Source: a virus (lineage: Duplodnaviria; Caudoviricetes). From it: a stretch of 59,842 nt of DNA. Of this stretch, positions 16,201 to 57,000 are shown piece after piece (the stretch's first letter is position 1; each line of letters begins with the position of its first letter). A program made the position numbers and the translations under genes. The stretch spans positions 1-59,842 of the IMG/VR virus record IMGVR_UViG_3300025132_000006. One strand, 5' to 3'. The notes beneath the pieces were generated by a model, which was not told where the DNA came from, did no database searches, and saw only the letters and a list, made by a program, of their open reading frames with translations.

Positions 16201-19200
16201 CTGAAAGAATAGAATCAAAAACAAAAGAGATAGAAGGAGTTGCTGCTTCTGAATTAAAACAAAAAACAGAAGAGTTGTTTGGTAATGCTTTTTCAGATAA
16301 AGATGTTTTAGGTAGGCTAGAAAGTGAAATACTACAAGAGGCAGTAGAAAGAATAGACCTAAAAAATACAGACAGAACTTATACTAAGTCAACTGTTTCT
16401 TTATTGACTAACCCAGAGTTTGCTGGTGGCACTATTAATTCATTAAGAAGTATTAAAGATATTCATGCATTTCTTGACTCTATGGCTAAAAATGGTAAGC
16501 CTACTGAAGAAGTTGATATGTTAAAGCAATTTTATGAAAATTTACATAGAGCTATAGAAAAATCTGAAAGTGGAGTTATAAAATTTAACAAAGAAACTTT
16601 ACCTGTTGATGGTCTTGAAAATAATTTATATCAGGCATTAAGAGAAGCAGAGCATTATTCAAGGCAAAGTTCATTAGATGCTCTTATATATGGTTCTCAA
16701 GAAATATCCAATTCTTTAAATAAATTAGTATTTGATACAACAAAAGAGATAGCAACAATCGTTAATACAGATACAAATATGCCTGAGCAAAATAGAAAAG
16801 AACTATTTGATACATTATTTAAAACTCAAAGACTTGGTCAATCTTTAATAGACCAAATTTCTATTGCAAAACGAGAAGGAAATTTAGTTGCCTTAAATAG
16901 CTTAAATAAAAGAAAAGTAGATTTAGATAAAAGTTTAACAGAGCTTACAAGTAATATTCAAAGTAAAACTGCTCACGAAAGTTATCAACAAGTATTAGCC
17001 GATATGGCTAGGGTTCAAGGTGAAATAAATTCAAAGCCATTAAATCATAGTGAAATTGAAACTATTTTTAATGAAAGATTGCAATATGAAATGAAATCTT
17101 CTAAAGCTCCTTCTATAGAACCTCCGAATACTATATCTTTAAATCAATTTGAATCTAAATATTTTGTAAAAATGAGTGACTACATTTTAATGGAAAGAGC
17201 ATTAAATGAACCAATACAAACTGGTAATAGTGCTATAGATTTATTAATAACTGCAAAAAGAAATATTAAAGTTAATCTCGGTACAGAGAGTGAGTCTATG
17301 GTTGCAGATGCTATGAGAATATTAGATAAGGGTATAGAAAACTTAAAAAATTTACAAGGTAAAAAAGTTTTAGAGCCTAAAGAAATGGTTGATTATATTC
17401 GTAAACCTATGATGGAGTACATAAAAACTCAATTATTTTCTGCTCAAAAACTTGGAATACTTGATAATGAAGCATTTGCAAAAAGATTATTAGAAGTTGA
17501 TAGTGATTTAAATCAGATTATGACTCAAGCATTTTCAACAAAACAGTTAAGAAGTCTTGAATTTCATAAAGGAGGATTCCTTTTAACAAAAGAAACTGTT
17601 CCTAATACAGATAAAACTGGGTTTTTAGCAGTTGAAAAACAATTAGGCATTGAAGGTAGAATGTTTTTATTAAAAAATAGTGGAGTAGATGCTGAAGGCA
17701 ATAGATTTCAAAGAGTTAATAAAGAAATGCGTGAAAATATTGAACTTGCGTTATCTAGTGATGTTGGAGCGACTGTAGTAAATAGAGACGCAGAAGCAGA
17801 TTTTTATAGAACTCAAGACCCTAAAATTATTGAAAAAGATGCAGACTTAGTTTCGAATAAAAGAAAACTTCAATTAATAACAATAGATGAGGGTGTTAAT
17901 TTATTAGTTGAAAATTCTCCAGAAGTAATTGCAAATATTAATGCTAATTATACATGGGATGCCTCATCTAAAGGAAAAAATAGTGAGATAATGCAAACAC
18001 TAGATAGAATTTTAGTGGATGGAAATAACGCAGATAACTTAGCTTTAACAGAGAAATTTAGAAATCCAAATATGAAGGGTGAAGATATAGCTAGTGCAAT
18101 ATTATTAACTAGAGCTATTTCTGATAGTAAAAGTCTTGTTTCTGACTTTTTAAAGAATACTGCAAATGATAAATTATTAAAAGCTGAGTGGAAGCGTCTA
18201 AAGATGTTTGAACATAGAAGTGGCTTTACTGGAACTAAGGATAATGTAAAATTTGTATATGAATTATTAAGAGAAACTGTTCGTGAGGGTATGTTTAAAC
18301 ACCAACACAAGCTTTCTTTAGAAAAATTAGAACAAGTATTTGGCAAGAACGGTGAAACACCTTTGGATTTAGTTGTTATAAATGATGAAACTGGTCCTGT
18401 TGAGGTAAATGGTAAGATGAATTATAATCCATTTGATTATAAACAAGGAGTTGCTGCTAGATTAAAAAAACAACTTCAAGAGCAGCTTGATTTAAAATCA
18501 ATTACCCAAGAACAGTTAAATGAGACTATGGATAAACTAGCAAAAGATAAAAGCGAAGTAGATAGTGTCACATATTTAAATAAAGATACATTTCAAGCTC
18601 TTATGACTTTTCTTGGAGTCAAAGACCAAATGATAGAATATAGACCTGATGGAAGTGCTATAATTAGAGCAGGTGCTATTAAACCAGTAATTACTCATAG
18701 TGAAATTTCAAAAGACGGTAGTTTGTTAGAATTTATTTTAAAAACTTCTTTTCAATATAGTCCGACTGTTGAAGGGATAATGCCTAAAAATGTAAATGGA
18801 ATAGCTTTTAAGAGTGGTGCAAAGAAATTTAAGACTAGACAAGGTAAAGGGGAAATGGTAGATAGTTATATGGCTCCTGATAGAGTTCCTGGAGATATTT
18901 TAAAGAATGCTAGTTTAGATAGAAAATTAGATATGACTTTTGAAAATGTTGATATATCAAATAGCGTTGCTAGTATTCCTTTATCTTCTATAAACCTTAA
19001 ACAAGCCTCTAGTGAACATACTGGCTTAGTAGCTGCTAATACTGGTGTTCATTTTAATAGAAGAGGTATGGAAGGAATGAGGAAATGGACAGGTATTGAT
19101 AGAAAGATGAGCGATTTTGGTAGAACTCAGCAAGAAGTTTGGTTAAATCCATATAAAAGAACTGCTGTTGCAAAAGAATTATTTGGGTATAGTCAAGAGA

Positions 19201-22200
19201 CTGGCGACCCTTTTATGCTAAATACTGGTCTTGACTTTATATTAGAAAATAGAGGTGTGCTTGTTCAAGATTGGATTCAACCAGTTATTGAAAGAAGTTT
19301 AATAAGCCATCATTTAAGTGGTGGGAATATAACTGCTAGAAAAATTTATGAATCTGAGACTGCAGTAATGACTCCAGATTCAGGTGGACTTCAATTACCA
19401 TTTAGAACAAAATTAAATGGGACTAGAGCTGTTCAAAGAATTTTTGGAGGTTCAAGAATATCAACATTCTTAGGAAACAAGCTCGTAAAGTTTGATGGTG
19501 AAGTAAATAGACATAATGACCAAGCTAGTGATACAGCCGCTAATATTGTTAAGTTTTCAGATGGTTTAGAAGGTATATTAGTTCATGGTTTAAATAATAA
19601 AAGCAAGGCAAGTAAAGAAGCTACTTTATATGTAGATGGTTATATGGTTACTCCTGAAGGTAAAATATATGATTTAAGCACAGGCATGAATAAAGAAGTT
19701 ACCTTACCAGAAGCTCAAAGAGTTGAATATATAAATAAACAAAAAGAAGCAAATGAATTAGGTAATCTTTTAAAAGAAAAACTTAATTTAAAAGAAAATG
19801 GAACTGCTACAATGTCTCAAGCTATGGGAGAAGCTGAGAGTGTTAGAAATTCTTTGAAAAAAGGTGATAATAGAGGCATATGGATGGCTTCTATAAGTGT
19901 AAGACAACCTAGAAACCAAGCTGGTGATATGATTGTTGAAAAATTGGAAGGGTTTACTAGAGGTCAAGGCAACGTAAAAGAAACAAATAGTATAGATGCA
20001 ATTCAAACTGCTGATGCTGATTTTGATTTAGATAAAATTACAACGTACACTGCTTCTAATAAAGAAGTATGGGGAGAAGTTGCTAGATTAGCTGGGCATA
20101 CAACATTTAATTCAGATGCTGATATACAGAATTACATAGAAAGAGAATTTTCATCTTTTGATAGCTTTAGAGACCATAATAACAATATTCAAGAAACTGC
20201 TTTTGTTCGCTCTAGGTTTGTAAAACTACATCAAACAATGACTTATTTAAAAAATATGCTTGGTGGGAATAGTATTGCAAATTTTAGATACGGTAAAGAG
20301 TTATACTCTATAAAATTAAAACAAGAAACAAGTGAGTTTTTAAATACAGAAGCAATTTTATCTCAAATGGCTAAAATGTATATAGATGTATATAATAATA
20401 CTCCTCGAATTAATTCTAATTTTGTTAACCATGCAATGAGAAAATTATTTTTTGGCGAGAATGGAATGTTCCAAGTTAAAGTTATAGATAAAGGTAAAGA
20501 ATTAGATAGTGATTTACAACTATGGCATAAAGATGGTACAAATAATCCTTATGGAGATATAAATACTAATTTTATAGACGTTATTCAAGCAATAGAAGGT
20601 AGGTTTATTAGTCCACTTGGTCAATATTTACAATATAACAGAGGAGTTACTCAATTAGATAGTAATTTTCAAAGGTCTTCTAGTATTCAAGATTTTTCTG
20701 GTGCTTATGAAAGAACATTATATTCATTTAATGACAGAGTAAAATGGAATGGGACTGAGTCTAAAACAGATATATTAGATTTAACACCTGGTTTAAAGGC
20801 TGCTCAAGCTTATTTTAGAGACTCTTCTAATCCATATGATATTGGAATGAGAGAAATGAATAATCTTAATGCTAAAAAACATAAGGAAATAAATATTTTT
20901 GAAGGCGATATGGGTAAATTAGTTACTGCTATAGAAGAAGGGGTTATCGATACTGGAGATTATCAACAACAATATAGAAATGCAGTCAATAATGCATATG
21001 ATAAGTTTATAAAGAATCAATTTAATATGGCTGAAGTAACTGCTTTATTAAGAAGACAATATGGAGTAGAGTCGCAAATGAATAGTTTAGAAATGAGATT
21101 TTCTAGAATGAACATTAAAGAGACTCCTGAATATATGGCTTTAGCAAAAAAACAAGAACGACTTTCAGAAGCAGTTGAGGGATTAAGACAAGTTATGGGA
21201 GCTGGGAGAGATTTTGAAATAGCTAAAGGAAATGAATTTTTTGATGAAATAAGATTAAAAAAGAATTTTAAGGAAAAGGAATATGTAAATACATCTAAAG
21301 CACCTATTGTAGTTAGGTCTGGAGATGGAAGCATGAAAGAAATTATTCGTGGAGGAGAAAGAAATCAACAGCGAATAGGGAAGAAAGATAGAGTATTTAA
21401 GCATGGTAGGAGATGGGAGTTTGCATCTGAAACTCAAATAGGGGCAGATATAAATAATATAGCCTTTGGAATGTTGCCATCTTATAATAGAGGTGGTGAT
21501 ACTTCAATAATGAGTGAAGGTCAATTTAAAAAATATCAAGATTGGAGAACTAGGCTTGAAATTAATTTAAGAGAAATTGAGAATAGTTTAACAGATAAAA
21601 GAGGGAGACAAGTAACTATGTTAACCTCTCAAGAAAACTCAATGATAACTGCTCAAAAAATGAGAGAATTGAATAATTTCATTCAAGAATTTAATTTTAA
21701 TGATGGTACAAATATACTTGATAAGTGGGCAATCGTTCATGCATTAATGCAACCAAAGGTAGATAAAAATGTAATGTTAGCAAAGCCAGTTACTGATGGA
21801 AAAGGCGTGAAAGGAATGTCTTTTGGAAATAAAGTATATATGCATAATTATGGTAGAACAGAAAAACTACTATGGGATTATTTAAATGAAGTAAGAAGTA
21901 CACATCACGAAAATTTTAAAGACTCAGGTATTAGTTCAGTAGAAGCAGCTGAGTTTATGAGAGCTATTATACAAAATCAAAAACAAGCATTATTAATACA
22001 TGAAAGACCTTATGGAGATATTAGAATGAATGTTGATGGCTTTTGGACTGAACCATCTAGAATTACTGAAAGCAACCATTTTAAACAAACTAATTTACAT
22101 GCAGAAGTTCATGAATTAGCTAGGTCTGCTAACGAACAAGTAAAAATGGCAGCTAATACTTTAATAAGATATTCAAGAGGAGAAGGTGGATTAGTAGACC

Positions 22201-22427
22201 CAATAACATTATATAAAGCTCAAAGAACTCTTGAAACAGAAGGTAATATACCAGCTGGTGAAACATTTATGATGGTTCAAGCAAAAGAACCAAATGTGGC
22301 TTTTGGGAATATGAACCTAGAAGGAATAAAAAATAATATTAATTATAATAGAAGAACTGGGACAGAAGGTGTTTTAAAAGAAAAACCATCTCAGTACTTA
22401 GAAGATGCGATAAGGTGTTTACAATGA
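13248..22427 (+). CDS. Giant virion protein carrying a two-barrel (double-psi beta-barrel) DNA-dependent RNA polymerase
   Basis: RQP at aa 2219 (nt 19902) and DADFDLDK at aa 2256 (nt 20013) match the beta'-type R-x-P...DxDxD arrangement. Upstream VDSVTY / IKP / LKTS / FKSGAKK resemble the second-barrel motifs of crAss-type RNAPs. The N-terminal third is G/A-rich, like ejection proteins. Confidence 0.8.
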   Translation: MSDINSLLDSLQQSIDEDYRHSITPKPSTTNRSLHKSLDNLQQEELQDRTSIQNQRPTDAPKGTFGSQFIWGVAESAMVAPGLWESLGKQTGIAPNIQEGDIRKSLGGVKWDDATQLGKVGHVFGAGVGMLAPFGLAGKLVGGVLRVGGKVIQGGQALMKSTPFLARAASKELIERVGKVTGKSATTLSKENAKTIVNLAEDVISKPSVLNKIRGLKHHDEIVKGLGQIEMRNVIKNSIPDIADDAVDDISRIAIEAVSHHSVKNAHAILESAARGLMSLGGKRQTGLPTDLLAAYSYDALLGGVFGFGKYAAEQYSKQAWQDETGVLEAGKFIQDTDWWEGANHMLEEGAWLGLLGPVRYIAGGTGSPLITVPRFWNKNPGKVNKIIGGLAKNWKKIDNITPNEARATMQMMDSVSNGAIRHFIDKGKMPIVSKAMEKNPSAWWQYFTKNGDEAIGALNEIRSTFVRNAPRILAGETLKDFAYSLPRMGMGAFTMNLPVIHETWKNAKGMPTGERFKWTAENSFGETWADIGANITVAMLMTRSGRAIRRFDKPASGSAKDTGMQLGISRGEMQTHLTGADRYIKEVQAGLETMGLAPSQRHQLAMRYSQHNEFPGEYGNRLSQAITETDATFKGINEKINERSLTKEEISKLDIEKIESEGRHIDIQEAYKKAAKERNLSSEEIAQWNKDLEIAKAVERFMESELITGEITHKPMSPNEAREYVKDLANTKIDGVSLTSENVMPLLRKARNHAVAKATKESYNEIIMTYKDVAEALGLEVVYDKQRGVIYAPESLQLPMLGRVDVANQKSRDRNAMTESFNHIHKLGIQLGWIKPQKKVSSMTAENLTGEGYDKAVNIFSERLLNLHKYTYGHEHNRESLEGGHSWNDFMMTSDTWHYAYGAGKSYLQRENVKSFLRGDYKNVDSHLGGDEISKFHRELESRIGSNWVEIKDLDKVTSDKNEQNDIRAFITNLNKIYRLGTPSERIESKTKEIEGVAASELKQKTEELFGNAFSDKDVLGRLESEILQEAVERIDLKNTDRTYTKSTVSLLTNPEFAGGTINSLRSIKDIHAFLDSMAKNGKPTEEVDMLKQFYENLHRAIEKSESGVIKFNKETLPVDGLENNLYQALREAEHYSRQSSLDALIYGSQEISNSLNKLVFDTTKEIATIVNTDTNMPEQNRKELFDTLFKTQRLGQSLIDQISIAKREGNLVALNSLNKRKVDLDKSLTELTSNIQSKTAHESYQQVLADMARVQGEINSKPLNHSEIETIFNERLQYEMKSSKAPSIEPPNTISLNQFESKYFVKMSDYILMERALNEPIQTGNSAIDLLITAKRNIKVNLGTESESMVADAMRILDKGIENLKNLQGKKVLEPKEMVDYIRKPMMEYIKTQLFSAQKLGILDNEAFAKRLLEVDSDLNQIMTQAFSTKQLRSLEFHKGGFLLTKETVPNTDKTGFLAVEKQLGIEGRMFLLKNSGVDAEGNRFQRVNKEMRENIELALSSDVGATVVNRDAEADFYRTQDPKIIEKDADLVSNKRKLQLITIDEGVNLLVENSPEVIANINANYTWDASSKGKNSEIMQTLDRILVDGNNADNLALTEKFRNPNMKGEDIASAILLTRAISDSKSLVSDFLKNTANDKLLKAEWKRLKMFEHRSGFTGTKDNVKFVYELLRETVREGMFKHQHKLSLEKLEQVFGKNGETPLDLVVINDETGPVEVNGKMNYNPFDYKQGVAARLKKQLQEQLDLKSITQEQLNETMDKLAKDKSEVDSVTYLNKDTFQALMTFLGVKDQMIEYRPDGSAIIRAGAIKPVITHSEISKDGSLLEFILKTSFQYSPTVEGIMPKNVNGIAFKSGAKKFKTRQGKGEMVDSYMAPDRVPGDILKNASLDRKLDMTFENVDISNSVASIPLSSINLKQASSEHTGLVAANTGVHFNRRGMEGMRKWTGIDRKMSDFGRTQQEVWLNPYKRTAVAKELFGYSQETGDPFMLNTGLDFILENRGVLVQDWIQPVIERSLISHHLSGGNITARKIYESETAVMTPDSGGLQLPFRTKLNGTRAVQRIFGGSRISTFLGNKLVKFDGEVNRHNDQASDTAANIVKFSDGLEGILVHGLNNKSKASKEATLYVDGYMVTPEGKIYDLSTGMNKEVTLPEAQRVEYINKQKEANELGNLLKEKLNLKENGTATMSQAMGEAESVRNSLKKGDNRGIWMASISVRQPRNQAGDMIVEKLEGFTRGQGNVKETNSIDAIQTADADFDLDKITTYTASNKEVWGEVARLAGHTTFNSDADIQNYIEREFSSFDSFRDHNNNIQETAFVRSRFVKLHQTMTYLKNMLGGNSIANFRYGKELYSIKLKQETSEFLNTEAILSQMAKMYIDVYNNTPRINSNFVNHAMRKLFFGENGMFQVKVIDKGKELDSDLQLWHKDGTNNPYGDINTNFIDVIQAIEGRFISPLGQYLQYNRGVTQLDSNFQRSSSIQDFSGAYERTLYSFNDRVKWNGTESKTDILDLTPGLKAAQAYFRDSSNPYDIGMREMNNLNAKKHKEINIFEGDMGKLVTAIEEGVIDTGDYQQQYRNAVNNAYDKFIKNQFNMAEVTALLRRQYGVESQMNSLEMRFSRMNIKETPEYMALAKKQERLSEAVEGLRQVMGAGRDFEIAKGNEFFDEIRLKKNFKEKEYVNTSKAPIVVRSGDGSMKEIIRGGERNQQRIGKKDRVFKHGRRWEFASETQIGADINNIAFGMLPSYNRGGDTSIMSEGQFKKYQDWRTRLEINLREIENSLTDKRGRQVTMLTSQENSMITAQKMRELNNFIQEFNFNDGTNILDKWAIVHALMQPKVDKNVMLAKPVTDGKGVKGMSFGNKVYMHNYGRTEKLLWDYLNEVRSTHHENFKDSGISSVEAAEFMRAIIQNQKQALLIHERPYGDIRMNVDGFWTEPSRITESNHFKQTNLHAEVHELARSANEQVKMAANTLIRYSRGEGGLVDPITLYKAQRTLETEGNIPAGETFMMVQAKEPNVAFGNMNLEGIKNNINYNRRTGTEGVLKEKPSQYLEDAIRCLQ

Positions 22428-25400
22428 GTTGGATTACTTGTAATAAATTATTTAGACGTAAAGGCGGTATGTCTGATTCTAAAAGAAAAAAATTATCTGA
22501 TAGATTGCGTTCAGCAGTTGCGTCATATGAAAGCAATCCAATGTTTATAAAAACTAAGTATGCTAATGATACTGAAACTATGTTGTGGCTTTGGAATAAA
22601 TTTACAAAGAAAGAGTTGGATTTTGATTTTAATCCTATAAAAATGTCTGATGTTAGAAAATTTGAACATGGTATAAAATGGTTTGAAAAAAATCTAACAA
22701 ACAAAGCTAATGGTAAAGGTAAATTTTTTGATATGTTTAAAGTAGGAGATGCTTTAACAAGAAAATTTCCAGAGCTTCAAGCATTTCAAGAAAATCTTTC
22801 TCAAGAGACAGGTCATTATCGTAATGTTACTATTAAAGGCAGTCAACTATCTGACGAAATTGTAAAAGGATGGGTTCACCTTGCTAAACAAAAAGGTGGT
22901 GATGTGAAAAAATTAAGATTATTAGAAGGTAATCTTGAAAAAGAATTATCAAAGCCTAAAAATCTACAAGACAAAACATATATAAATACAACAGAAAAAG
23001 AAATACAAAAATTTCTAAATGAAGAAAGTTCTAGTAGAATTTTTAGAGATTTTAATTTAGTTATGAATGGCTTAGATGTAGAACAACTAAATGTTGGAGG
23101 TGGAGACCGATATGTACACGATGGTAAAGAATATAATAAAGAGCGTTATAACTCAGAAGATATGAAAGTATGGAGAACTATTGATTCCAATATGAAAGAA
23201 ATGAGAACTATGGGTGTCAAAGTTCTAGGGCAATCAATTAATAAAGTTTTAGCAACTGCTAAAATACTTGATAAGAGAGAACAAGGTACAAGGAATTTAG
23301 AAGCTACTGTTAGAAATGCAGTAGATATGATAAAAAGATTAGAGTTCCAATCTGAAGTTGATGCAGGTCCTGGATTAACATCTAAAGAAATGAAATGGTT
23401 TGATGAGTTAAGTGCCTTTGGTTTTAGGAAAGGTGAAGATGCAGCTATATTAAAAAAATATATGCCATTATATGTAATAGGTGCTACTAAGTTATTAAGA
23501 CAAATGTCATTAGAAATGAGAAAGAATACTATTGACAATTCTTCTTTAGACCAAGTATTAAAAGACCAAATTGATGGATTTAGAAGAACTAGTACTAGGA
23601 TTTTAGAAAGAGGTAATATACAAGATGGTAGATATACTATAGACCCAGCTTATTTCTTAAAAAAATATGTTCATGATGTTTCTACATTTAATTTTACAAC
23701 ACACTTAGAAAATAGTTATTGGAAGCACGCAGAAAAACTACTTGATATGCATGCCAAAGCTAAACATGACAACGATAAAGAAGTTATGAATTTAGCTGAA
23801 AGTCTTATTAAACAAATGAATGAGATGAAAGATGTTGTTACTAGCGTAGACCCAAATAACGATACTATGATTAATGATTTAAGTAGATTAATGACATCCG
23901 TTACATATTTAAGACTTATGGGTGGAAACTTAAGGTCTGCTCTTAGAAACGGTACTCAGAGAATATATGAGGTAATGGAGTTTGGAGTTGGTGCTTCATG
24001 GAATGCTAGACAATGGAGAAAAAAAGCTGAAAACCAAGAATTAGTAAATAAACAAGCAAAAAGATTTGGATTAAGTTGGTATGTCAATGAAGGGGCTGGA
24101 TTACTTGGAAGAAGTCGTGATTTACCAATAGAACAAGCAACAAGAGGTGCTATAGCTGAATCTAATAGAGTTCCAGAAGGAATGAAAATAAACGAATTAG
24201 GTGAGATGGTAAAGTCCGATTCAGCAGTTAGGGGTATAACTAAAGGAACTGCAGATGTCGCTTCTTGGGTAGCAGGTAAATTAGGTAAAGCTCATACTAT
24301 AGTAGAGGATTGGAATAGAGCTGGGACATTTGGGACTGCATTCGCATTGCAATATCAAAAAATGCAAGTAGCTCCTAAACCTTGGTTAATGAAAAAGATG
24401 GGTTGGAGAAAGGGTCAAAAGACTCCAAGTGATGATGCAATAGAAAGATTTAGACAAAATAAAGCTGGTAGAATGGCTTATAATTTAACAACAGACTTAC
24501 ATTTTGAATACTCTAAGTGGGCTAAATCAAAAGCATTTGGAGGAGCAAGTGGAATGGCAGGAGCTGCTGGTCAAATAGGTGGACAGTTTATGCATTATAG
24601 ATTATCAATGTTTAATATGATGCAAAGATGGGTAAAAGAAGGTTTACTATCTATGAAGACGGGAGATTTTACAAGTGAAGAAGTTTGGAAACTTGCAAGA
24701 GCTGGAATGATTTTCTATTTAATTGAAGGAATGAGTATGGCTTCAAATATGAATTTAAGTCAATTAGCTCAAAACGATGTTGTAGATACTTTAGAAAAAA
24801 CATGGAATTTCTTTGCATTAGATAGAGATAATCCTGCAGAGAAAAAAGAACTAGACAAAGAGCTGTATGGTCAAGGTGCTTGGTCTTTTGCAGGTCCTAA
24901 TATATTATACGCAGCTAATATTGGCGAAGCAGCTGGTTTTTGGCATTTAGGTGAAAATAGTTATTTTAAGAGTCAAAACATAGTTGAGGGGAATGAAAAT
25001 TTTACTCGACAACAAAAATGGAAATCTAGAGCATTAATCAATAGCCAGCTTGCAAGATTTACTAGTTATACAATGCCACTTCTTGTTAAGAGGGGATTTT
25101 GGGACGCTGCTAGATTTGAACTTGGTCTTATGCCTGATAAAAAATGGAAAAATATGAGGGGTTGGATTGGTCATAATTTTAAAAAAGAAATTCCTTATAA
25201 ATTGAGAAAACAAGTTGCATTAACTGGTATAAGAAAAGATATTCAACGAGGGTTTAAGGATAGAAGTGTTCTTGATACTAGAGATATGTTAACTGATTTA
25301 GATGTTCTACAAGGGAGAATAACTCCATCACAATCTCTGAATCGTAGAAAACGGAGGACTACGAGAGGTGGATATAAAAATCAGAAAAATGTGATGGAGG

Positions 25401-25429
25401 CATTAACATTTATGGAATCTCTTCCTTAG
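22424..25429 (+). CDS. Large internal virion (ejection) protein
   Basis: Likely ATG at 22424 (ATGA overlap with the RNAP stop); helical with G/A-rich and hydrophobic C-terminal segments; last late-arm gene. Confidence 0.6.
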   Translation: MSWITCNKLFRRKGGMSDSKRKKLSDRLRSAVASYESNPMFIKTKYANDTETMLWLWNKFTKKELDFDFNPIKMSDVRKFEHGIKWFEKNLTNKANGKGKFFDMFKVGDALTRKFPELQAFQENLSQETGHYRNVTIKGSQLSDEIVKGWVHLAKQKGGDVKKLRLLEGNLEKELSKPKNLQDKTYINTTEKEIQKFLNEESSSRIFRDFNLVMNGLDVEQLNVGGGDRYVHDGKEYNKERYNSEDMKVWRTIDSNMKEMRTMGVKVLGQSINKVLATAKILDKREQGTRNLEATVRNAVDMIKRLEFQSEVDAGPGLTSKEMKWFDELSAFGFRKGEDAAILKKYMPLYVIGATKLLRQMSLEMRKNTIDNSSLDQVLKDQIDGFRRTSTRILERGNIQDGRYTIDPAYFLKKYVHDVSTFNFTTHLENSYWKHAEKLLDMHAKAKHDNDKEVMNLAESLIKQMNEMKDVVTSVDPNNDTMINDLSRLMTSVTYLRLMGGNLRSALRNGTQRIYEVMEFGVGASWNARQWRKKAENQELVNKQAKRFGLSWYVNEGAGLLGRSRDLPIEQATRGAIAESNRVPEGMKINELGEMVKSDSAVRGITKGTADVASWVAGKLGKAHTIVEDWNRAGTFGTAFALQYQKMQVAPKPWLMKKMGWRKGQKTPSDDAIERFRQNKAGRMAYNLTTDLHFEYSKWAKSKAFGGASGMAGAAGQIGGQFMHYRLSMFNMMQRWVKEGLLSMKTGDFTSEEVWKLARAGMIFYLIEGMSMASNMNLSQLAQNDVVDTLEKTWNFFALDRDNPAEKKELDKELYGQGAWSFAGPNILYAANIGEAAGFWHLGENSYFKSQNIVEGNENFTRQQKWKSRALINSQLARFTSYTMPLLVKRGFWDAARFELGLMPDKKWKNMRGWIGHNFKKEIPYKLRKQVALTGIRKDIQRGFKDRSVLDTRDMLTDLDVLQGRITPSQSLNRRKRRTTRGGYKNQKNVMEALTFMESLP

Positions 25430-34907: not shown

Positions 34908-35666
34908 TTATAAGAAACGCACTTTCTTACCTCTTGATTGATAATTATATATATCTTCAAGAAGAGTCATATACGTTTCAGTATCTGGACAACGAACTAA
35001 TTTGGTACTTTGATATTCAACTTTCTGCATCATTGTATCATGATTATAGTCCTCTACTGTTTCTATAATCTTAAGTAATGCATTAATAAATCCTCTTTGT
35101 TTATACCATTTAAACCAATTAGAGAACTCATTAATTTGTTCAATGATTGCATTAACTTCGTTGACTGTTCTTAAGAACTCAAGACCACCTGTCTTAAATG
35201 CTATTTGAGAACCTTTAGTATTCCCCATAAATAACATTATCAATGAGTTATGACTCCATCCACTTCTTCGCTTAATACCACAATACATTTTATAGTTCTT
35301 GTGACCTAAGTTAGCATAGTGTTTAGCGTAATCATCATAATTCCATCTGTTTTGTTGTTGTATAGAAGCCACATTCCACGGCTTTAACCTTTCATGTTCA
35401 TCAACAACATAATGAATAGACTCACCAAGTTCTTTACAAGCAGTGAATCTGTACTGCCCATCATATACAGGATGCTTACCATTTGGATACTCATCATCTT
35501 TATAAGCTGGGTTAAGTGGTAATACAATAACTGGATTAACATCAGTTAAATTACCTATAGCTTTAATATTGTTAACTATCTCAGCTAAGTGATTAGGCTT
35601 TATGTCTCTATTCCAGTCCTCAAGAGTAAATAGACCATAATCCTTTGTTTTACGTATTCTAGGCAT
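34908..35666 (-). CDS. ParB/Srx-like N-terminal domain protein
   Basis: NR.I...H...I, PVIV, V.DGQYRF.AC..L and N..W...D motifs; likely start MPRIRK after GGGAGG. Confidence 0.75.
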   Translation of the reverse strand: MPRIRKTKDYGLFTLEDWNRDIKPNHLAEIVNNIKAIGNLTDVNPVIVLPLNPAYKDDEYPNGKHPVYDGQYRFTACKELGESIHYVVDEHERLKPWNVASIQQQNRWNYDDYAKHYANLGHKNYKMYCGIKRRSGWSHNSLIMLFMGNTKGSQIAFKTGGLEFLRTVNEVNAIIEQINEFSNWFKWYKQRGFINALLKIIETVEDYNHDTMMQKVEYQSTKLVRCPDTETYMTLLEDIYNYQSRGKKVRFL

Positions 35667-35709
35667 AGTGCCTCCCTTCATCTTTTTGTTAGAGTCGCTA
35701 TCTCTTTAA

Positions 35710-35847
35710 TTATCTAAGTCCAATATACTCCATAGCTCTATAAACAGGCGACTGTCTACAATAGTTTAACCACGCATTTAATATAATATCAGCTTTAATC
35801 TTTTGCTCACCAATACTATTCTTAGATTGTTTTATCTTTTTGTTCAT
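35710..35847 (-). CDS. Hypothetical protein
   Basis: Likely start MNKKIK after a purine-rich RBS. Confidence 0.45.
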   Translation of the reverse strand: MNKKIKQSKNSIGEQKIKADIILNAWLNYCRQSPVYRAMEYIGLR

Positions 35848-36016
35848 TTTCTTCCCTTTCCTTGTCAAATACAAGTCTTGCAGTATTCTTTGAACCATTT
35901 ACTGCTTGAAGATATACCATAGTATACTCACACAGTCCATTAGCGTCAAGAAATGATTTAGGTAGTGTTAACCTGCCTCTATCATCTATTCTGCATCTAG
36001 TTATATACATACTCAT
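35822..36016 (-). CDS. AbrB/MraZ-type DNA-binding protein
   Basis: RIDDRGRLTLPKSF signature. Confidence 0.75.
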   Translation of the reverse strand: MSMYITRCRIDDRGRLTLPKSFLDANGLCEYTMVYLQAVNGSKNTARLVFDKEREENEQKDKTI

Positions 36017-36029
36017 TTATTACCTCTTT

Positions 36030-36107
36030 CTACTCTTTTAATTGATAATGATTAAATATTCCCCATGCAACTAAGCATGTACCTACAATAATCCATGATT
36101 CTATCAT
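36030..36107 (-). CDS. Possible 25-aa single-TM micropeptide
   Basis: AGGAG RBS; MIESWIIVGTCLVAWGIFNHYQLKE. Confidence 0.4.
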   Translation of the reverse strand: MIESWIIVGTCLVAWGIFNHYQLKE

Positions 36108-36134
36108 TTATTTACTCTCCTATTTTAAAAATTT

Positions 36135-36220
36135 AGAGGCAACTACGAAGTAAAGGTTACTCCCATCGTATTAGTAACTTCAGCTCGAGCTTGGGAACTA
36201 GACTCGTTATCATTGCCTCT
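36135..36220 (-). ncRNA. Structured RNA candidate E (three-way junction, possible loop-loop kiss)
   Basis: agaggcaa/ttgcctct closing stem; hairpins cgagt/gctcg and gttact/agtaac; loops contain complementary CCCA and UGGG. Confidence 0.55.
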
Positions 36221-36229
36221 TTAAAGTTA

Positions 36230-36619
36230 GAATTGCACCTGTCCCCGTTGGTTAGATATACCCGTTACGGTCTTAATATAACAATGCACCCTTTAGCACG
36301 GTGTTTACATTGCGTAGGATAACTTATAGTAAGTGTTAGCTAAACAAATCTATAAGCGATTATAATCCTCCGATACATGGCTCTTCAGCTTCTTCGGTAA
36401 TAGAGAATATATATTATACGACCTAACGATAGCTTAACATTGCTTGTATGAACCACATCTCTTTAGGAGACCCTGTTACACATACTACAGTCACTACAAC
36501 TGTTATCGTTCTTATGCATACCAATATATTAGTGGCAATAGCATAAATAGGAAGGTACTAAAGATAGTTCTTATAGTACTCTACTATATTAAGATGGTTA
36601 CACATATCAAGTGCAATTC
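36230..36619 (-). ncRNA. Large (~390 nt) multi-domain structured RNA candidate F, class unknown
   Basis: 12-bp terminal helix, second long-range 11-bp helix and at least five internal domains (see findings). No credible minus-strand ORF. Confidence 0.7.
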
Positions 36620-36630
36620 ATTAAAATTTA

Positions 36631-36764
36631 TAGGCAGAATAAGGCGATGTAATTGCGACCACTTTTACATTCTTATATTATGGTTACCTTGCTCATATAT
36701 GACTGTTGGACTCTATATCTATGTTTTACCATGAATGCCACCAGAATTTCATAAGTACTGCCTA
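36631..36764 (-). ncRNA. Structured RNA candidate G (same TAGGCAG/CTGCCTA closing stem as candidate A)
   Basis: taggcag at 36631 and ctgccta at 36758; inner hairpins atgaa/ttcat and atgtaa/ttacat. Confidence 0.5.
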
Positions 36765-36889
36765 AATACTCTTGTACTATACAAATAATAAATATTATCT
36801 CTTGCTCTGGTTTAGATTAAGTTGAAGCTCTTACAACACACAAGAGGTAAATTGAGAGTTTATCCTATACTACTCACAAGGTTTTAAAA

Positions 36890-37111
36890 TCAATAGTCCA
36901 GTACTAACAAAGGAACACCTGGATGCCTACGCAGATGATTGGAAATCTGCTTCATCGTATCATCGTAATCACAGGTTATCTGCACTACATAGTTGTCCTT
37001 TAACATGAATCTAGTACCTATCATACCATTGTCAAATGTAAGACTACGAATAGCCTGTACATTGCCCAGATTAATGGTGTAAGTATGTGATTTAAGTAGA
37101 ATATTGGTCAT
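36890..37111 (-). CDS. Small protein, FlbD/LytTR-like pattern
   Basis: AGGAGG RBS; INL..V..I...T.F.L.D...V......D...K pattern. Confidence 0.6.
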   Translation of the reverse strand: MTNILLKSHTYTINLGNVQAIRSLTFDNGMIGTRFMLKDNYVVQITCDYDDTMKQISNHLRRHPGVPLLVLDY

Positions 37112-37235
37112 GTTCCCTCCTTTTTAAGTTTATGCCCAAGTTATATGTAATTTTATACTAATAATAGAGTATTTATATCTTTCCATTATCTGCTTGTATT
37201 ATACAATAAACATAAGAATAACATCATAATAACAA

Positions 37236-37265
37236 GGACAGAACAGCCATAAGACTGCTCTGCCC
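37236..37265 (-). terminator. Hairpin/terminator downstream of the first early gene
   Basis: gggcagagcagtc-ttat-ggctgttctgtcc (13 bp with G-U pairs on the minus strand) followed by ttgttatt. Confidence 0.6.
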
Positions 37266-37345
37266 AAACAAACCACGTGAAACGTCAAGAGATGCACTAC
37301 CATATTAAAGATAGGTTTCCTCTGCGTTCAATGGATGCCATAAAG

Positions 37346-37600
37346 TTATTTCTTGTCTCCTCCTACCATCTCTAGTAAGTGACCGACAACTGCTGTCAAC
37401 TCTTCAATTGGTTGAGATATGTTAGCATTACTATTCACACCTGCCCATAGAGCGGCGACGTCTTCAAATGAACCTTGACTCGCGGCTTTGGCTAGCATGA
37501 TAGCAGATAGAGTATCCATACTCTTCTTATCTACACTCTTTAGACCATTGAGGTTGATACGTGTTGGGAAGTCTCTGCCTCCCTGTATTCTTAAACTCAT
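37346..37600 (-). CDS. Hypothetical protein, first gene of the leftward arm
   Basis: Strong GGAGG RBS. Confidence 0.7.
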   Translation of the reverse strand: MSLRIQGGRDFPTRINLNGLKSVDKKSMDTLSAIMLAKAASQGSFEDVAALWAGVNSNANISQPIEELTAVVGHLLEMVGGDKK

Positions 37601-37734
37601 GTTTCCTCCGTTAATTAATCATCAAAAAGTAAATTCTTAAAAATCAATTACAACGTAAATCCTAATAAGGAAAAACCCTTACTAGGGGGTGTACAAGATA
37701 AATAAGAGGGAGTATCAAAATCCTACAATTTTTC

Positions 37735-52870: not shown

Positions 52871-54060
52871 TGGCTATAACCGCTAAAGTAACAAATGCTA
52901 GTTCTACTAAAGCAGTAGGCACTCAAAATGCTACTAAAACTCAAGATAGTTTTAATGTAAAAGCAGGGGCAATTTCAGTTGATTTAACTGGTAGAATTTC
53001 TACTGCTAGAAATGTTAATGATGCTTTACAACTATTAGATGCAAGAACAGCGGCTCAAACATCTGCTCCAAATCCGATGACTGAGGGAGATATATGGTAT
53101 AAGACAGATACAGATGAATTATATATAAGAACAGATAGTACTTGGAATGAAATAGTAGTTAGTGGAGTTTCAGGTACAATTTATGGAGGAACTGACACAA
53201 CTCCTTTAAATAGGAACACAATTAAAAGGTCTGCTTATAATGCATCTAATGTTCCCTCAAATAATAGTATTTTAGCAGGTGAACTTAATTTTATACAAGG
53301 AAGCAAAAAGCTTTATATTGGAAGGGAAAATGATGGTACTGGGACTATTGAAGCTTATCATATCCCTCTAGCAACAGATTTATTACCTAATTCTACTAGT
53401 TTTACATTATCAGATAATAGTGGAAATGCAAACGATAATAGTCAAGTACTTGCATTGGCTAGTGGAGTCGCAGGTAATGGATTAAGTCTATCAAATCACG
53501 CTTTATCGGTAAATCCTGATAATGATAGTATTGAACTAAATAGTGATGCATTAAGAATTAAACCTTCAAAAGTTTTAGTAAATGTAAGTGATGGTAGCAA
53601 TTCCACGGGGATTACATTAGGAAATACTGCCACATTCTCAGGAACTGCAAATGAGACAACTGTAGCAGAGAATAACGGAACGATTACTGTTGGTCTGCCT
53701 GATAATGTTACAATACAAGGTAATTTAACTGTTGGTGGGACAACTACTACAATTAATTCATCTACTGTAACTATTGATGACCCTATCTTTACATTAGGGG
53801 GAGATACAAATCCCTCTTCGGATGACAATAAGGACAGAGGAATAGAATTTAAATGGCATAATGGTAGCTCTCATAAATTAGGTTTTTTTGGAATGGATGA
53901 TAGTGATGGAAAATTTAAGTATATACCAGATGCTACAAATAGTAGTGAAGTATTCTCAGGTTCTGTTGGTAGTGCAGTATTCAACGATGTAGCAATATCA
54001 ACAATTAATGGAAACGCAGTATTTGATAGTAACTCAACTGTGGATGGTGGGACTTTCTAA
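52870..54060 (+). CDS. Tail fibre/collar protein
   Basis: GDIWY.TDT..LYI, GELNF...KLYIG, GNLTVGGTTTTINS..VTIDDPI.TLG and DRGIEF motifs; ends VDGGTF. Confidence 0.8.
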   Translation: MAITAKVTNASSTKAVGTQNATKTQDSFNVKAGAISVDLTGRISTARNVNDALQLLDARTAAQTSAPNPMTEGDIWYKTDTDELYIRTDSTWNEIVVSGVSGTIYGGTDTTPLNRNTIKRSAYNASNVPSNNSILAGELNFIQGSKKLYIGRENDGTGTIEAYHIPLATDLLPNSTSFTLSDNSGNANDNSQVLALASGVAGNGLSLSNHALSVNPDNDSIELNSDALRIKPSKVLVNVSDGSNSTGITLGNTATFSGTANETTVAENNGTITVGLPDNVTIQGNLTVGGTTTTINSSTVTIDDPIFTLGGDTNPSSDDNKDRGIEFKWHNGSSHKLGFFGMDDSDGKFKYIPDATNSSEVFSGSVGSAVFNDVAISTINGNAVFDSNSTVDGGTF

Positions 54061-57000
54061 TGGCTAATACTATTAAAATTAAAAGAAGTGGAACTTCTGG
54101 AGATTCTCCAACTTCAGGAGAACTACAACATGGTGAATTAGGGATTAATTATGCAGATGGTAAATTATTCTTTAAAAACTCTAGTAATGTAGTACAAGAA
54201 TTATTAACAAGTCCAGGTACTTCAAATGGGCAATTATTATTTGCTAATTCTAGTAGTAATTTTGAAGGGGATAGTAATTTATTTTGGGATAACACGAATA
54301 AAAGACTTGGTATAGGTACAGCCTCTCCCACAGAAAAACTTCATGTAGAAGGAGCAATACAACAAACTAAGATAAAAATTTATAATAGTGGTAATAGTGG
54401 TAATATAGAACAGACTGGTGCTTTTGGTGGTGGAACAATGTTTTTTAAACAACTTGGTTCTAACCACGATATAAGATTTCAAACCAATAAAGCTGGTTCA
54501 ACTACAACTGCTTTAGCTATTGATGGTTTAACACATAATATTGGTATAGGGACAGAATCGCCTAGCTTGTCCTATGGTGGCGGTTTGCATATAAAAAATG
54601 CAAGTAATGTAGCAAATTTAAAAGTTAGTAGTGGTAGCTCAACTGGGTTTGATTTATGGCAAGATACTGGCGGTAATGCTTATGTAATTAATCACGATAA
54701 TGCTGGGATATTATTTAAGACTAATGGTGGAGATAGGCTTTATATTAAAAGTGATGGCGATGTTGGTATTGGTACATCCTCTCCGACAAAAGGGAAATTA
54801 GAAGTTTATGGTAATGGAGCAGATACTACATTAGCAATACATGAAGATGGAGGAAGTCATAAAGCACAATTACACCTTAGAAGTGGTGGCAATGATGTAA
54901 AATTACATACAAGTGCATCTGATAGTAAATTTTATATAGATACAGAAAATGTATCAAAAGCATTTACTATAGCAACTGATGGAAAGACTGGCATAGGCAC
55001 AGACTCTCCTACTCATGGGAAACTACAAGTAAATCCAGGTTCAAATAGTACTACTGGTCTTGCAATATGGGGTGCAAATGATGGTATAAAAATTCAAAGA
55101 GCTAATGGTTCTAATGACGGAGCGTTTGGTCACATTACTTTTACAACTAATGATTGGATTCACCTAAAAACATATTCAGAAACCAAAGGTATTGGTGCAG
55201 ATATAATTGGTGGAGCTAACAGCGGTATCAATCCAGCTAACAATTACATTCACTTTAGTGGCTATGATAAAATATTTAGTCGTGTAGGCACTACTCAGTT
55301 GACAATGGGCAATGGTAAAGTTTATTTTGAAAATGTTAATGTCGGCATAAATACATCTTCTCCTACTCTTAGTAAATTACAAATAAATACATCCTCTAGC
55401 ACAAGAGGATTAGTAATAAATGCTACTGATAGCAATGCTTCTTACATGCAGTTTTCAAATTCAACAACTGGAACTGGTACAAGTCAAGGACTTCAAGTGG
55501 GTTTACAAGTAGATGAATCTGCTTTTATAGACTTAAAGTATTCAAGCCATTTAGCAATTAAGACATCTGGTGCTGAAAGAATGAGAATTACTTCAACAGG
55601 AAGCGTCGGTATCGGTACAACCTCACCAACAACAATACACCATGTTCACAATTCAGGAGCAACTACTGGTTGGACACATTATACAAATTCAAGTACTGGA
55701 ACGACTGGGAATGATGGTACTCATATAGGTACTAATGGAGTACACGCTTATTTATGGAATAGAGAAGCTGGTGATATTTATTTTGGAACTCAAGCTACTA
55801 CAAGAATGCTTGTTCAAAGTGGTGGTAATGTTGGAATTGGCACAACTTCGCCTAGTAATACGCTCCATGTTAATGGAACTGTTAGAGTTGACAGTTTATT
55901 ATCTTTTAGTGGCAATAGTTATATACAAGATGTAAGTAATAATTATTTAAAGCTAAGAATAGCTAATGGAGATTATTTTGCTATTCATGGTGGTGCATCT
56001 GATGCAGAATATATGAGAGTTGCTAACGATGGTAAAGTCGGCATCGGAACAGACTCTCCTGTTGCTAATTTACATATTTATAAGGATACTACTACTAATA
56101 ACGACAAGTTATTTAGAATATATAATGGCAGTGGATTGCAGTGGGAAATACAAGGCGATGGTAGCATGAGTGGCTATCTTGGTAATCCTATAGATAGTGT
56201 TACAATGATTAGAGGTCCATGGCAAACTGATTTATCAGTATCAGGTGGTAGTGCTAGTAGTGAAGCTGCTGCTGGTAATGTAGTTTTTAAAACAAATGAT
56301 GTTGAAAAAATGAGGCTTACTAAGACTGGACTACTCGGTATTGGTACATCCTCGCCTCAAGAAAAATTAGATATTTCTGCTGGTAATATAAGATTAGATA
56401 ATCAGCAACTTTTGACATTCGCAACTACAGATGCTAATAGTGGAAGAGTAGCTATTCAAGGCGATGAAGGAAGTGACTTTTTAAGATTTAGAACTGATAA
56501 TGCTAATAGAATGGCAATTACGAATACTGGTGTTGGTATTGGGACAATTTCTCCTAGTGTACCTCTTCACATTTCAACAACAAGTACAAATCCACTTTTA
56601 TTAGAAAATACTACTCAAGATGCTAGTGGCGGTGCAATACTAAATAAAATTTCTTTTAAACACAACGCTACATTAAATACAAGTTTAGAACATGGTTCGA
56701 TTGGCTACTATGCTGGTGAAACATGGGATGATACAAAATTTTATCAAACAATAAATAACGGAAATAGCGCACAAGTTGTAGCTGAAAATGTTCGTGGTAA
56801 TACTTGGAAATGGTATACTGGCGGAACTTCAAGAATGGTTATTGATTCGTCAGGCAAGGTCGGTCTAGGCACAGCCTCGCCTACTGCACCATTGCATATT
56901 AAAACAGCAATGTCTACTAACACAAACACAGATGCTTTAAAAGTAGAAGGTAATTATTTACTTGCAATATTAGGTGGAGATGACGCTCTATATAACGCTG

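Follow-up and report, generated by a model that had tools for sequence, protein, structure and literature searches.

GOLLD and ROOL count among the largest RNAs of bacteria and phages whose function is not known. GOLLD is frequently, not obligatorily, found next to tRNA genes. In HIV-1 (DIS) and phage phi29 (pRNA), copies of one RNA are paired through a palindromic or complementary loop; the phi29 pRNA is an early phage transcript and its loops are complementary, not palindromic. In T4-type phages, promoter/stem-loop ('PeSL') repeats shuffle the modules of the early region, which are small ORFs. In one preprint, GOLLD was described as a variable 5′ domain, a linker and a universally conserved 3′ domain, and both ROOL and GOLLD as forming RNA-only cages (bioRxiv 10.1101/2024.12.08.627333). 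In the same source, palindromic covarying loops mark RNA-RNA contacts (GOLLD L21a, OLE L9.3), and covariation from palindrome to palindrome was taken as support for intermolecular kissing loops in OLE and GOLLD (bioRxiv 10.1101/2024.12.08.627333). Phage RNAs of the manA type, shorter than 200 nt, were reported to be able to form cages, trimers and filaments (bioRxiv 10.64898/2026.07.01.735769).

The locus analysed here is a 0.75-kb stretch of an uncultured marine phage genome (the window, 59,842 nt). It probably holds three independent modules of structured non-coding RNA (Units C, B and A), a cassette that is transcribed early and fills the slot held by GOLLD in relatives. Like GOLLD (RF02032), it is a phage-borne non-coding RNA locus of ~0.8 kb in an identical slot, and Unit A adjoins the 3′ end of GOLLD in another contig, L111. 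Unlike GOLLD, it has no match to the conserved 3′ domain; unlike many GOLLD loci, it has no tRNAs nearby; and in place of a two-domain plan of ~800 nt it consists of modules of 134, 390 and 86 nt, each of which occurs alone elsewhere. With ROOL (RF03087) and the manA-type RNAs it shares being phage-encoded and structured, with no protein partner known; those RNAs self-assemble. The RNAs of the window have no Rfam match at E <= 10. Loop pairing between RNA copies, as in HIV-1 DIS and phi29 pRNA, is a candidate property of Unit A, but its palindrome is 10 nt long, lies within a pseudoknot and is unrelated to either in sequence or family. As in PeSL cassettes, short conserved non-coding joints flank interchangeable early-region modules; here, by contrast, structured RNAs are shuffled, and as joints there are AU-rich linkers whose conservation is only loose.

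The window is a complete phage genome with direct terminal repeats. Plus-strand genes from 37689 onward include those for the small and large terminase subunits and the portal. The minus-strand (early) arm runs from 37600 to ~25600, encodes a ParB-like protein, a Cas4-like exonuclease, a methyltransferase and a DnaB-like helicase, and diverges from the terminase arm at 37601-37688. The best match of the large terminase among cultured phages was below 25% identity, and the small terminase (TerS) had 487 relatives in IMG/VR. Pfam and PHROG searches with the neighbouring proteins found nothing beyond the ParB-like protein, exonuclease, helicase, methyltransferase and terminase, and blastn of 35700-37300 against 50,697 phage records gave zero matches. 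Fifteen runs were listed as sharing sequence words with 35600-37700, 14 of them marine or seawater metagenomes and one labelled as a viral metagenome. Large plus-strand ORFs at 13248-22427, 54060-59840, 3602-9414 and 22415-25429 (3059, >1927, 939, 997 and 1004 aa) had no credible Pfam match, and neither of the two largest had a PHROG match; for the 3059-aa ORF a single sub-threshold Pfam match was recorded (E 0.0075; 16.9 bits, the cut-off being 23.1).

Gaps were defined as stretches without a same-strand ORF of at least 50 codons. The largest of the genome, 36017-36889, measures 873 nt and the runner-up 234 nt, which bears out the preliminary description of ~750 gene-free nucleotides in a dense genome. 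Its placement two genes into the early arm was likewise correct, with minus-strand genes at 37346-37600 and 36890-37111 lying upstream. No credible ORF was present: on the minus strand, which carries all neighbouring genes, the longest frame in 36017-36889 was 47 aa, and no gene opened there when TAA, TAG or TGA was read as sense. An antisense ORF of 96 aa at 36444-36734 had no PHROG match, and its C-terminal part is not kept in L116, a metagenome locus with a copy of Unit B. On the 3′ side the cassette is followed by a mini-ORF of 23 codons and then by an AbrB/MraZ-like 64-aa gene. The features of the stretch, in the order of the minus strand, are as follows.

36852-36879, minus strand: hairpin just past the stop codon of the gene at 36890-37111, with an 8-bp AU-rich stem and a 12-nt loop, AGUAUAGGNUAA
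36771-36784, minus strand: dyad TTGTA-N3-TACAA, just 5′ of Unit C
36765-36770, minus strand: AU-rich linker before Unit C
36631-36764, minus strand: Unit C, 134 nt, closed by UAGGCAG/CUGCCUA
36620-36630, minus strand: AU-rich linker between Units C and B
36230-36619, minus strand: Unit B, a 390-nt multi-branched module with a long imperfect closing stem of ~31 bp
36221-36229, minus strand: AU-rich linker between Units B and A, read from the sequence
36135-36220, minus strand: Unit A, an 86-nt pseudoknotted motif with covariation in 10 sequences
36182-36191, minus strand: perfect 10-nt palindrome AGCUCGAGCU in a loop of Unit A
36040-36110, minus strand: membrane mini-ORF of 23 codons with a ribosome-binding site, the 3′ limit of the cassette

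The whole window was searched with Rfam 15 (including ROOL RF03087, self-cleaving ribozymes and riboswitches) at gathering score, with 0 matches. At E <= 10, the region 35900-37300 gave only two chance-level matches (a snoRNA and DUF805b, E 4-6). ARAGORN found 0 tRNA or tmRNA genes in the window, and no tRNAs were found in the loci of 14 relatives. The earlier comparison with a tRNA cluster therefore holds loosely, and the GOLLD locus is the better analogy. A sigma-70 promoter scan gave 7 sites against 8.1 expected, with no promoter above chance within the cassette. No intrinsic terminator was called inside the cassette, all terminator-like hairpins lying outside it.

The closing inverted repeats and the AT-rich linkers of 6-11 nt were found in the sequence and the repeat list where the preliminary description had placed them. 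It had proposed four closed units, the last of them less clearly. Units A, B and C are real modules, whereas the fourth ('unit D', 36771-36880) does not close on itself and contains a conserved hairpin and the dyad. The hairpin, at 36852-36879, marks where the gene-free stretch has its 5′ edge. In an alignment of six loci (A6) the loop of this hairpin was almost invariant; one stem pair was G-C in L003 and U-A in L004, L086, L091 and L101, and a U-run followed the hairpin in three of the six loci. The borders of Units A, B and C are homology breakpoints in other genomes, as given below for each unit. AU-rich flanks resembling AAAUUUUAA stand beside the Unit A copies in other loci, and the Unit B copy in L116 is likewise bordered by AU-rich flanks.

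Folding energy was compared with that of shuffled sequences. The whole gap gave z values of -1.0 (minus strand) and +0.4 (plus strand), and Unit A, Unit C and unit D gave -1.3, -0.3 and +0.9, respectively. Unit B reached -3.1, with 0 of 100 shuffles folding as well, but five of 27 coding windows of the same length from this genome also reached z <= -3.0. Folding energy was consequently dropped as evidence: the stability of the units, which the preliminary description had presented as self-contained folds, is not above chance, being either insignificant or, for Unit B, matched by coding windows. Since energy alone does not support the units, the case rests on comparison with other genomes. Coding windows of 390 nt near 15800, 27400 and 31600 gave z of about -4, which may reflect the noise of 15 shuffles or local mRNA structure.

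Unit A comprises helices P1 and P2, an invariant helix a (UCCCA/UGGGA), a pseudoknot helix b, an invariant CUAAYACGAUGGGAG and the 10-nt palindrome, and all features of the motif are present in the window copy. An exact-pattern scan of IMG/VR yielded 11 stretches with Unit A. Alignment A4 consisted of the window and nine of these stretches (10 distinct sequences), L109 and L114 being excluded as repeats of L105 and L107. In A4, 93.5% of 294 cells were paired and both sides changed in 15 of 30 pairs; 0 of 500 shuffles reached those values, and slid structures were 35-45% paired. The pseudoknot helix was paired throughout (100%); two of its pairs were compensatory and four cells G-U. Over the whole unit there were 8 G-U and 2 A-C cells, an excess that points to the minus strand as the RNA, and in all 11 loci the copy has the orientation of its flanking ORFs. 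The covariance model R1 matched the window at 36126-36221 (99.7 bits, E 2e-24, the window being among the 10 training sequences), which gives the borders of the unit. Run over 98 sources (669 kb), R1 gave no Unit A copy beyond those of the window and the contigs already known. An Rfam search at E <= 0.1 on the copies in L104, L105, L106, L108, L109, L111, L113 and L002 returned no family matching Unit A. A match to the Unit A pattern in a Polaribacter MAG, from a scan of 185,579 species genomes, lies in coding sequence and is unseen by R1, and was rejected as chance. In L002, one of the two nearest relatives, Unit A is absent from the slot, but the early arm has a copy ~4 kb farther along, at 6960-7053 (plus strand). 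The sequence that comes after this copy, AAAUUAGGCAG, is similar to the beginning of Unit C. Unit A is a compact, strongly covarying motif new to catalogues. Its loop, palindromic in every aligned copy, bears the mark from which RNA-RNA contacts were deduced in OLE and GOLLD, so that the motif lends itself readily to native gels or cryo-EM.

The palindrome of Unit A takes five perfect forms at one position in the 10 sequences: AGCUCGAGCU, AGUUGCAACU, ACUGCGCAGU, AGUUCGAACU and AUUGCGCAAU. All of its cells are paired. Covariation is seen at four of the five pairs, among them the central two, which are impossible in a hairpin. The calculated energy was -12.3 to -17.3 kcal/mol for the self-duplex and 0 to -0.4 kcal/mol for the hairpin. 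The palindrome is a candidate symmetric RNA-RNA (homodimer) contact, through which Unit A might self-associate and so dimerise, or bridge RNA attached to it.

No homolog of Unit B was found in ~100 loci of relatives. The metagenome locus L116 has 87.8% identity over 403 nt (window 36219-36620), nothing else similar to the window within 5 kb of its flanks, and no match to seven early-arm proteins (g1-g4, the mini-ORF product, the ParB-like protein and g6). A contig from run X3 carries a more diverged Unit B, with similarity over 36232-36617 and different sequence beyond; in it one hairpin still pairs through four changes and another pair goes from A-U to C-G. The minimum-free-energy (MFE) structure of the window's own Unit B was rejected, because 17 of its pairs (interior, long-range) are broken in L116, and a two-sequence consensus was used instead. 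This consensus has 119 pairs, nine of which change on both sides and five on one side, with ~13 conserved G-U pairs; the nine compensatory pairs are partly circular, as these two sequences also served to derive the consensus. The changes are concentrated in one arm, where the terminal loop UAGCUA is kept and the stem goes from UGUU/AACA to UGAU/AUCA. The MFE was -105 kcal/mol for the minus strand and -85 kcal/mol for the plus strand. Two full sequences and one partial variant give moderate support to the predicted structure. L115, found in IMG/VR with an 18-mer of Unit B, proved to be a chance match of 35 nt and was rejected.

The 5′ half of Unit C is a long hairpin with a conserved loop of ~27 nt. 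In L004, Unit C has 92.4% identity over 145 nt (36624-36768, which sets its borders), whereas the flanking genes have only 71-73%; in L003 only the 5′ half is present. The inner stem pairs in three sequences, with G-C, G-U and A-U at one site and a G.A mismatch replaced by U-A or U-G elsewhere. Pairing in Unit C, drawn from ~2.5 sequences with little variation, is suggestive but thin. A mini-ORF of 8 codons within the unit (36720-36746, minus strand, MKFWWHSW) was rejected as a gene on account of non-synonymous changes and the absence of a clear ribosome-binding site. As a Trp-rich mini-ORF it stays open, the L003 and L004 counterparts reading MKFYWYSW and MTFCWHSW.

The nearest relatives, L002 and L003 (ParB-like protein 88% identical), have a gene-free insert of 843 nt at the same place. 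It is mostly unrelated to that of the window; both contain half of Unit C, the hairpin and a stretch extending from Unit A's 3′ edge into the mini-ORF, the product of which is 64% identical to that of L003 over 22 aa (E 6e-8). In other relatives the slot contains either genes or gene-free inserts of unrelated sequence. In L011 the slot is occupied by GOLLD (118.9 bits, E 8e-31, full 416-position model), which sits between homologs of gene 1 and of g3, g4 and the ParB-like gene, confirming synteny. GOLLD was also found over the full model length in L084 (125.6 bits) and L061 (120.8 bits), so that, with L011, it occurred in 3 of 53 records searched (1 of 5 and 2 of 48). The Rfam gathering score for RF02032 is 150 bits. 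It was exceeded in L111, a 58-kb contig found through Unit A, where GOLLD (156.2 bits) ends 19 nt before the Unit A model match and ParB-like and g6 homologs lie downstream. A ParB-like gene is found 0.5-1 kb downstream in the window, L011, L108 and L111. Counting L111, four relatives have GOLLD at this slot, and the cassette locus is positionally equivalent to theirs. The window itself had no GOLLD or ROOL match at E <= 10, either in 35900-37300 or in the whole genome (7 candidates scored, relaxed filters), and BLAST detected no similarity between the window and the GOLLD of L011. An automatic count of gaps of at least 300 nt (23 of 36 relatives) was confounded by spurious 40-aa ORFs and the divergent promoter region and was not used.

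Gene-free inserts were also seen in the early arms of L003 (3342-4184), L004 (2928-3413) and L009 (1725-2370), and upstream of Unit A in L105 and L108; they measure 0.4-0.9 kb, have raised G+C and have no Rfam match. The last hairpin of L003 has a loop, UAAUCUCA, that resembles the loop of GOLLD's final hairpin.

Comparison of related genomes, proposed with the preliminary description, bore out gain, loss and re-assortment of whole units (L004, L116, L111 and others), and structural conservation was seen as compensatory changes in Units A and B. Units A, B and C match no catalogued family; phage-borne large structured RNAs are themselves a known kind. A literature search of limited depth found no publication on GOLLD alternating with other sequences at one slot or on Unit A beside GOLLD. 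GOLLD alternating with unrelated structured RNAs at one slot is a natural swap experiment, in which the alternatives should share its role. Likening the modules to GOLLD, itself an RNA without a known function, is positional only.

Sequencing runs were available as assembled contigs only, from which ends, strand and abundance are not readable. A contig in run X10 (its RNA label being a guess) was 100% identical over 36244-36566, inside Unit B, and one in run X11 (oligo-dT) was 100% identical over 36499-36741, spanning the linker between Units C and B. These are RNA-labelled libraries from two studies in which DNA carry-over is possible, and they hint weakly at the presence of the region as RNA. 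The genes on either side had no cover in X10 and X11, nor had parts of the stretch in X2 and X3, which does not count as evidence either way. The X11 contig does not establish a precursor and is compatible with processing at the linker. Cutting at the linkers and a host-takeover or decoy function, both put forward in the preliminary description, are thus conjectural.

The earlier reading as an RNA array stands in so far as it concerns separate non-coding modules on the early-gene strand, with conserved structure and re-assortment of whole units. The minus strand is taken as the RNA strand because of the G-U excess in Unit A, the ~13 conserved G-U pairs in Unit B, an MFE lower by 20 kcal/mol and the orientation of the flanking ORFs. 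The modules would be transcribed in the order C, B, A (5′ to 3′) with or just after the first two early genes, and are probably co-transcribed with them; the slot reads gene 1, gene 2, RNA, small genes, ParB-like gene. Each module is closed by a terminal stem, is set off by short AU-rich linkers and behaves as an exchangeable unit, recurring from border to border with different neighbours in other phage genomes (10 contexts for Unit A). The linkers may be the joints at which recombination takes place and might also admit nucleases. The modules presumably act as RNAs in their own right, as is thought for GOLLD and ROOL, and their role may be GOLLD-like. The comparison also shows whole structured-RNA modules, besides genes, to be shuffled among phage genomes. 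A further proposal, conceivable if doubtful, is that a marine phage lineage keeps an early slot for interchangeable RNA-only machines, with Units B and C as new occupants, unrelated to GOLLD, doing the same job and Unit A as a portable dimerisation or bridging module whose palindromic loop would join two copies of any large RNA fused to it; if true, this would provide new natural self-assembling RNAs and a comparative handle on GOLLD function, since these RNAs would be its replacements.

The modules might instead be cis-acting parts of an early polycistronic mRNA (5′-UTR stabilisers, insulators, terminators or antiterminators, sites of RNase entry or blocking) that tune the next gene. Five of the 10 Unit A copies, including that of the window, have a ribosome-binding site (Shine-Dalgarno) and a start codon within ~30 nt downstream, which keeps a cis role in view; the 5′ hairpin right past a stop codon, with its U-run in three of six loci, and the RNA-library contig that bridges the linker between Units C and B point the same way. 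Yet half of the copies have no adjacent start codon, and the genes downstream of Unit A are unrelated to each other (a 23-aa membrane peptide, a 97-aa protein and others). The structure extends over 745 nt with no terminator inside, and GOLLD, a free-standing RNA class, occupies the slot in relatives; we know of no leader that needs near 745 nt of structure. A purely cis-acting role is considered unlikely. A reading of the units as DNA elements, either miniature mobile elements with terminal inverted repeats or protein-binding dyads (the 10-bp palindrome, for instance, as a site for the ParB-like or AbrB-like protein), or both, would account for the inverted repeats and AT-rich flanks that bound each unit and for the movement of each unit as a whole. 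The ParB-like gene 0.5-1 kb downstream and the AbrB/MraZ-like 64-aa gene after the cassette (a weak Pfam match) would fit as well. This reading is quite improbable, as covariation reaches the internal helices and the pseudoknot, G-U is tolerated and A-C rare (8 against 2), the non-palindromic loops are invariant, and a protein site is not expected to take five unrelated palindromes amid 30 invariant nucleotides. The ORF list of the genome holds no transposase, and terminal inverted repeats and AT-rich flanks were found with no clear target-site duplication.

The cassette could also be a very divergent GOLLD (or ROOL) beyond the reach of the Rfam models, given the same slot, the similar length (~750 against ~830 nt) and Unit A as a common 3′ neighbour. 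The GOLLDs of relatives score 119-156 bits, however, whereas the window gave no match at E <= 10 with relaxed filters and no BLAST similarity to the GOLLD of L011, and the three domains are separately closed and also found separately; divergent GOLLD is accordingly rated very improbable. Decayed coding sequence or neutral spacer would be in keeping with folding energies like those of coding controls and with the 96-aa antisense ORF. This explanation is largely refuted and retains hardly any credibility: Unit C is conserved above its flanking genes, Units A and B show compensatory changes, the modules recur in unrelated contexts, and the antisense ORF has no PHROG match and loses its C-terminal part in L116. 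The cassette of three structured RNA modules remains the preferred reading.

A second exact copy of the dyad TTGTA-N3-TACAA (36771-36784) is found at 37193-37206 (minus strand), in the other non-coding gap of the early arm, and at <=2 mismatches the window has six matches against 2.6 expected. Lying immediately upstream of Unit C, the dyad may act as an operator or promoter. The 64-aa protein at 35822-36016 (minus strand) has weak MraZ/AbrB-type matches (E 0.005). It possibly binds DNA as a looped-hinge-helix protein, which would make it a candidate partner of the TTGTA-N3-TACAA dyads. TATAACTTGGGCATAAAC occurs once in the window, at 37128-37145 (minus strand), ~20 nt upstream of the ribosome-binding site of the gene at 36890-37111, and a near-identical ATAACTTGGGCAATAAC is present in gene-free gaps of L009, L012, L014 and L024; TATAACTTGGGCATAAAC is possibly a phage-specific promoter or 5′-UTR signal. 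Directly past the first early gene, at 37236-37265 (minus strand), there is a 13-bp GC-rich hairpin with a U-rich tail, like an intrinsic terminator, so that transcription of gene 2 and the cassette may need read-through or a second promoter.
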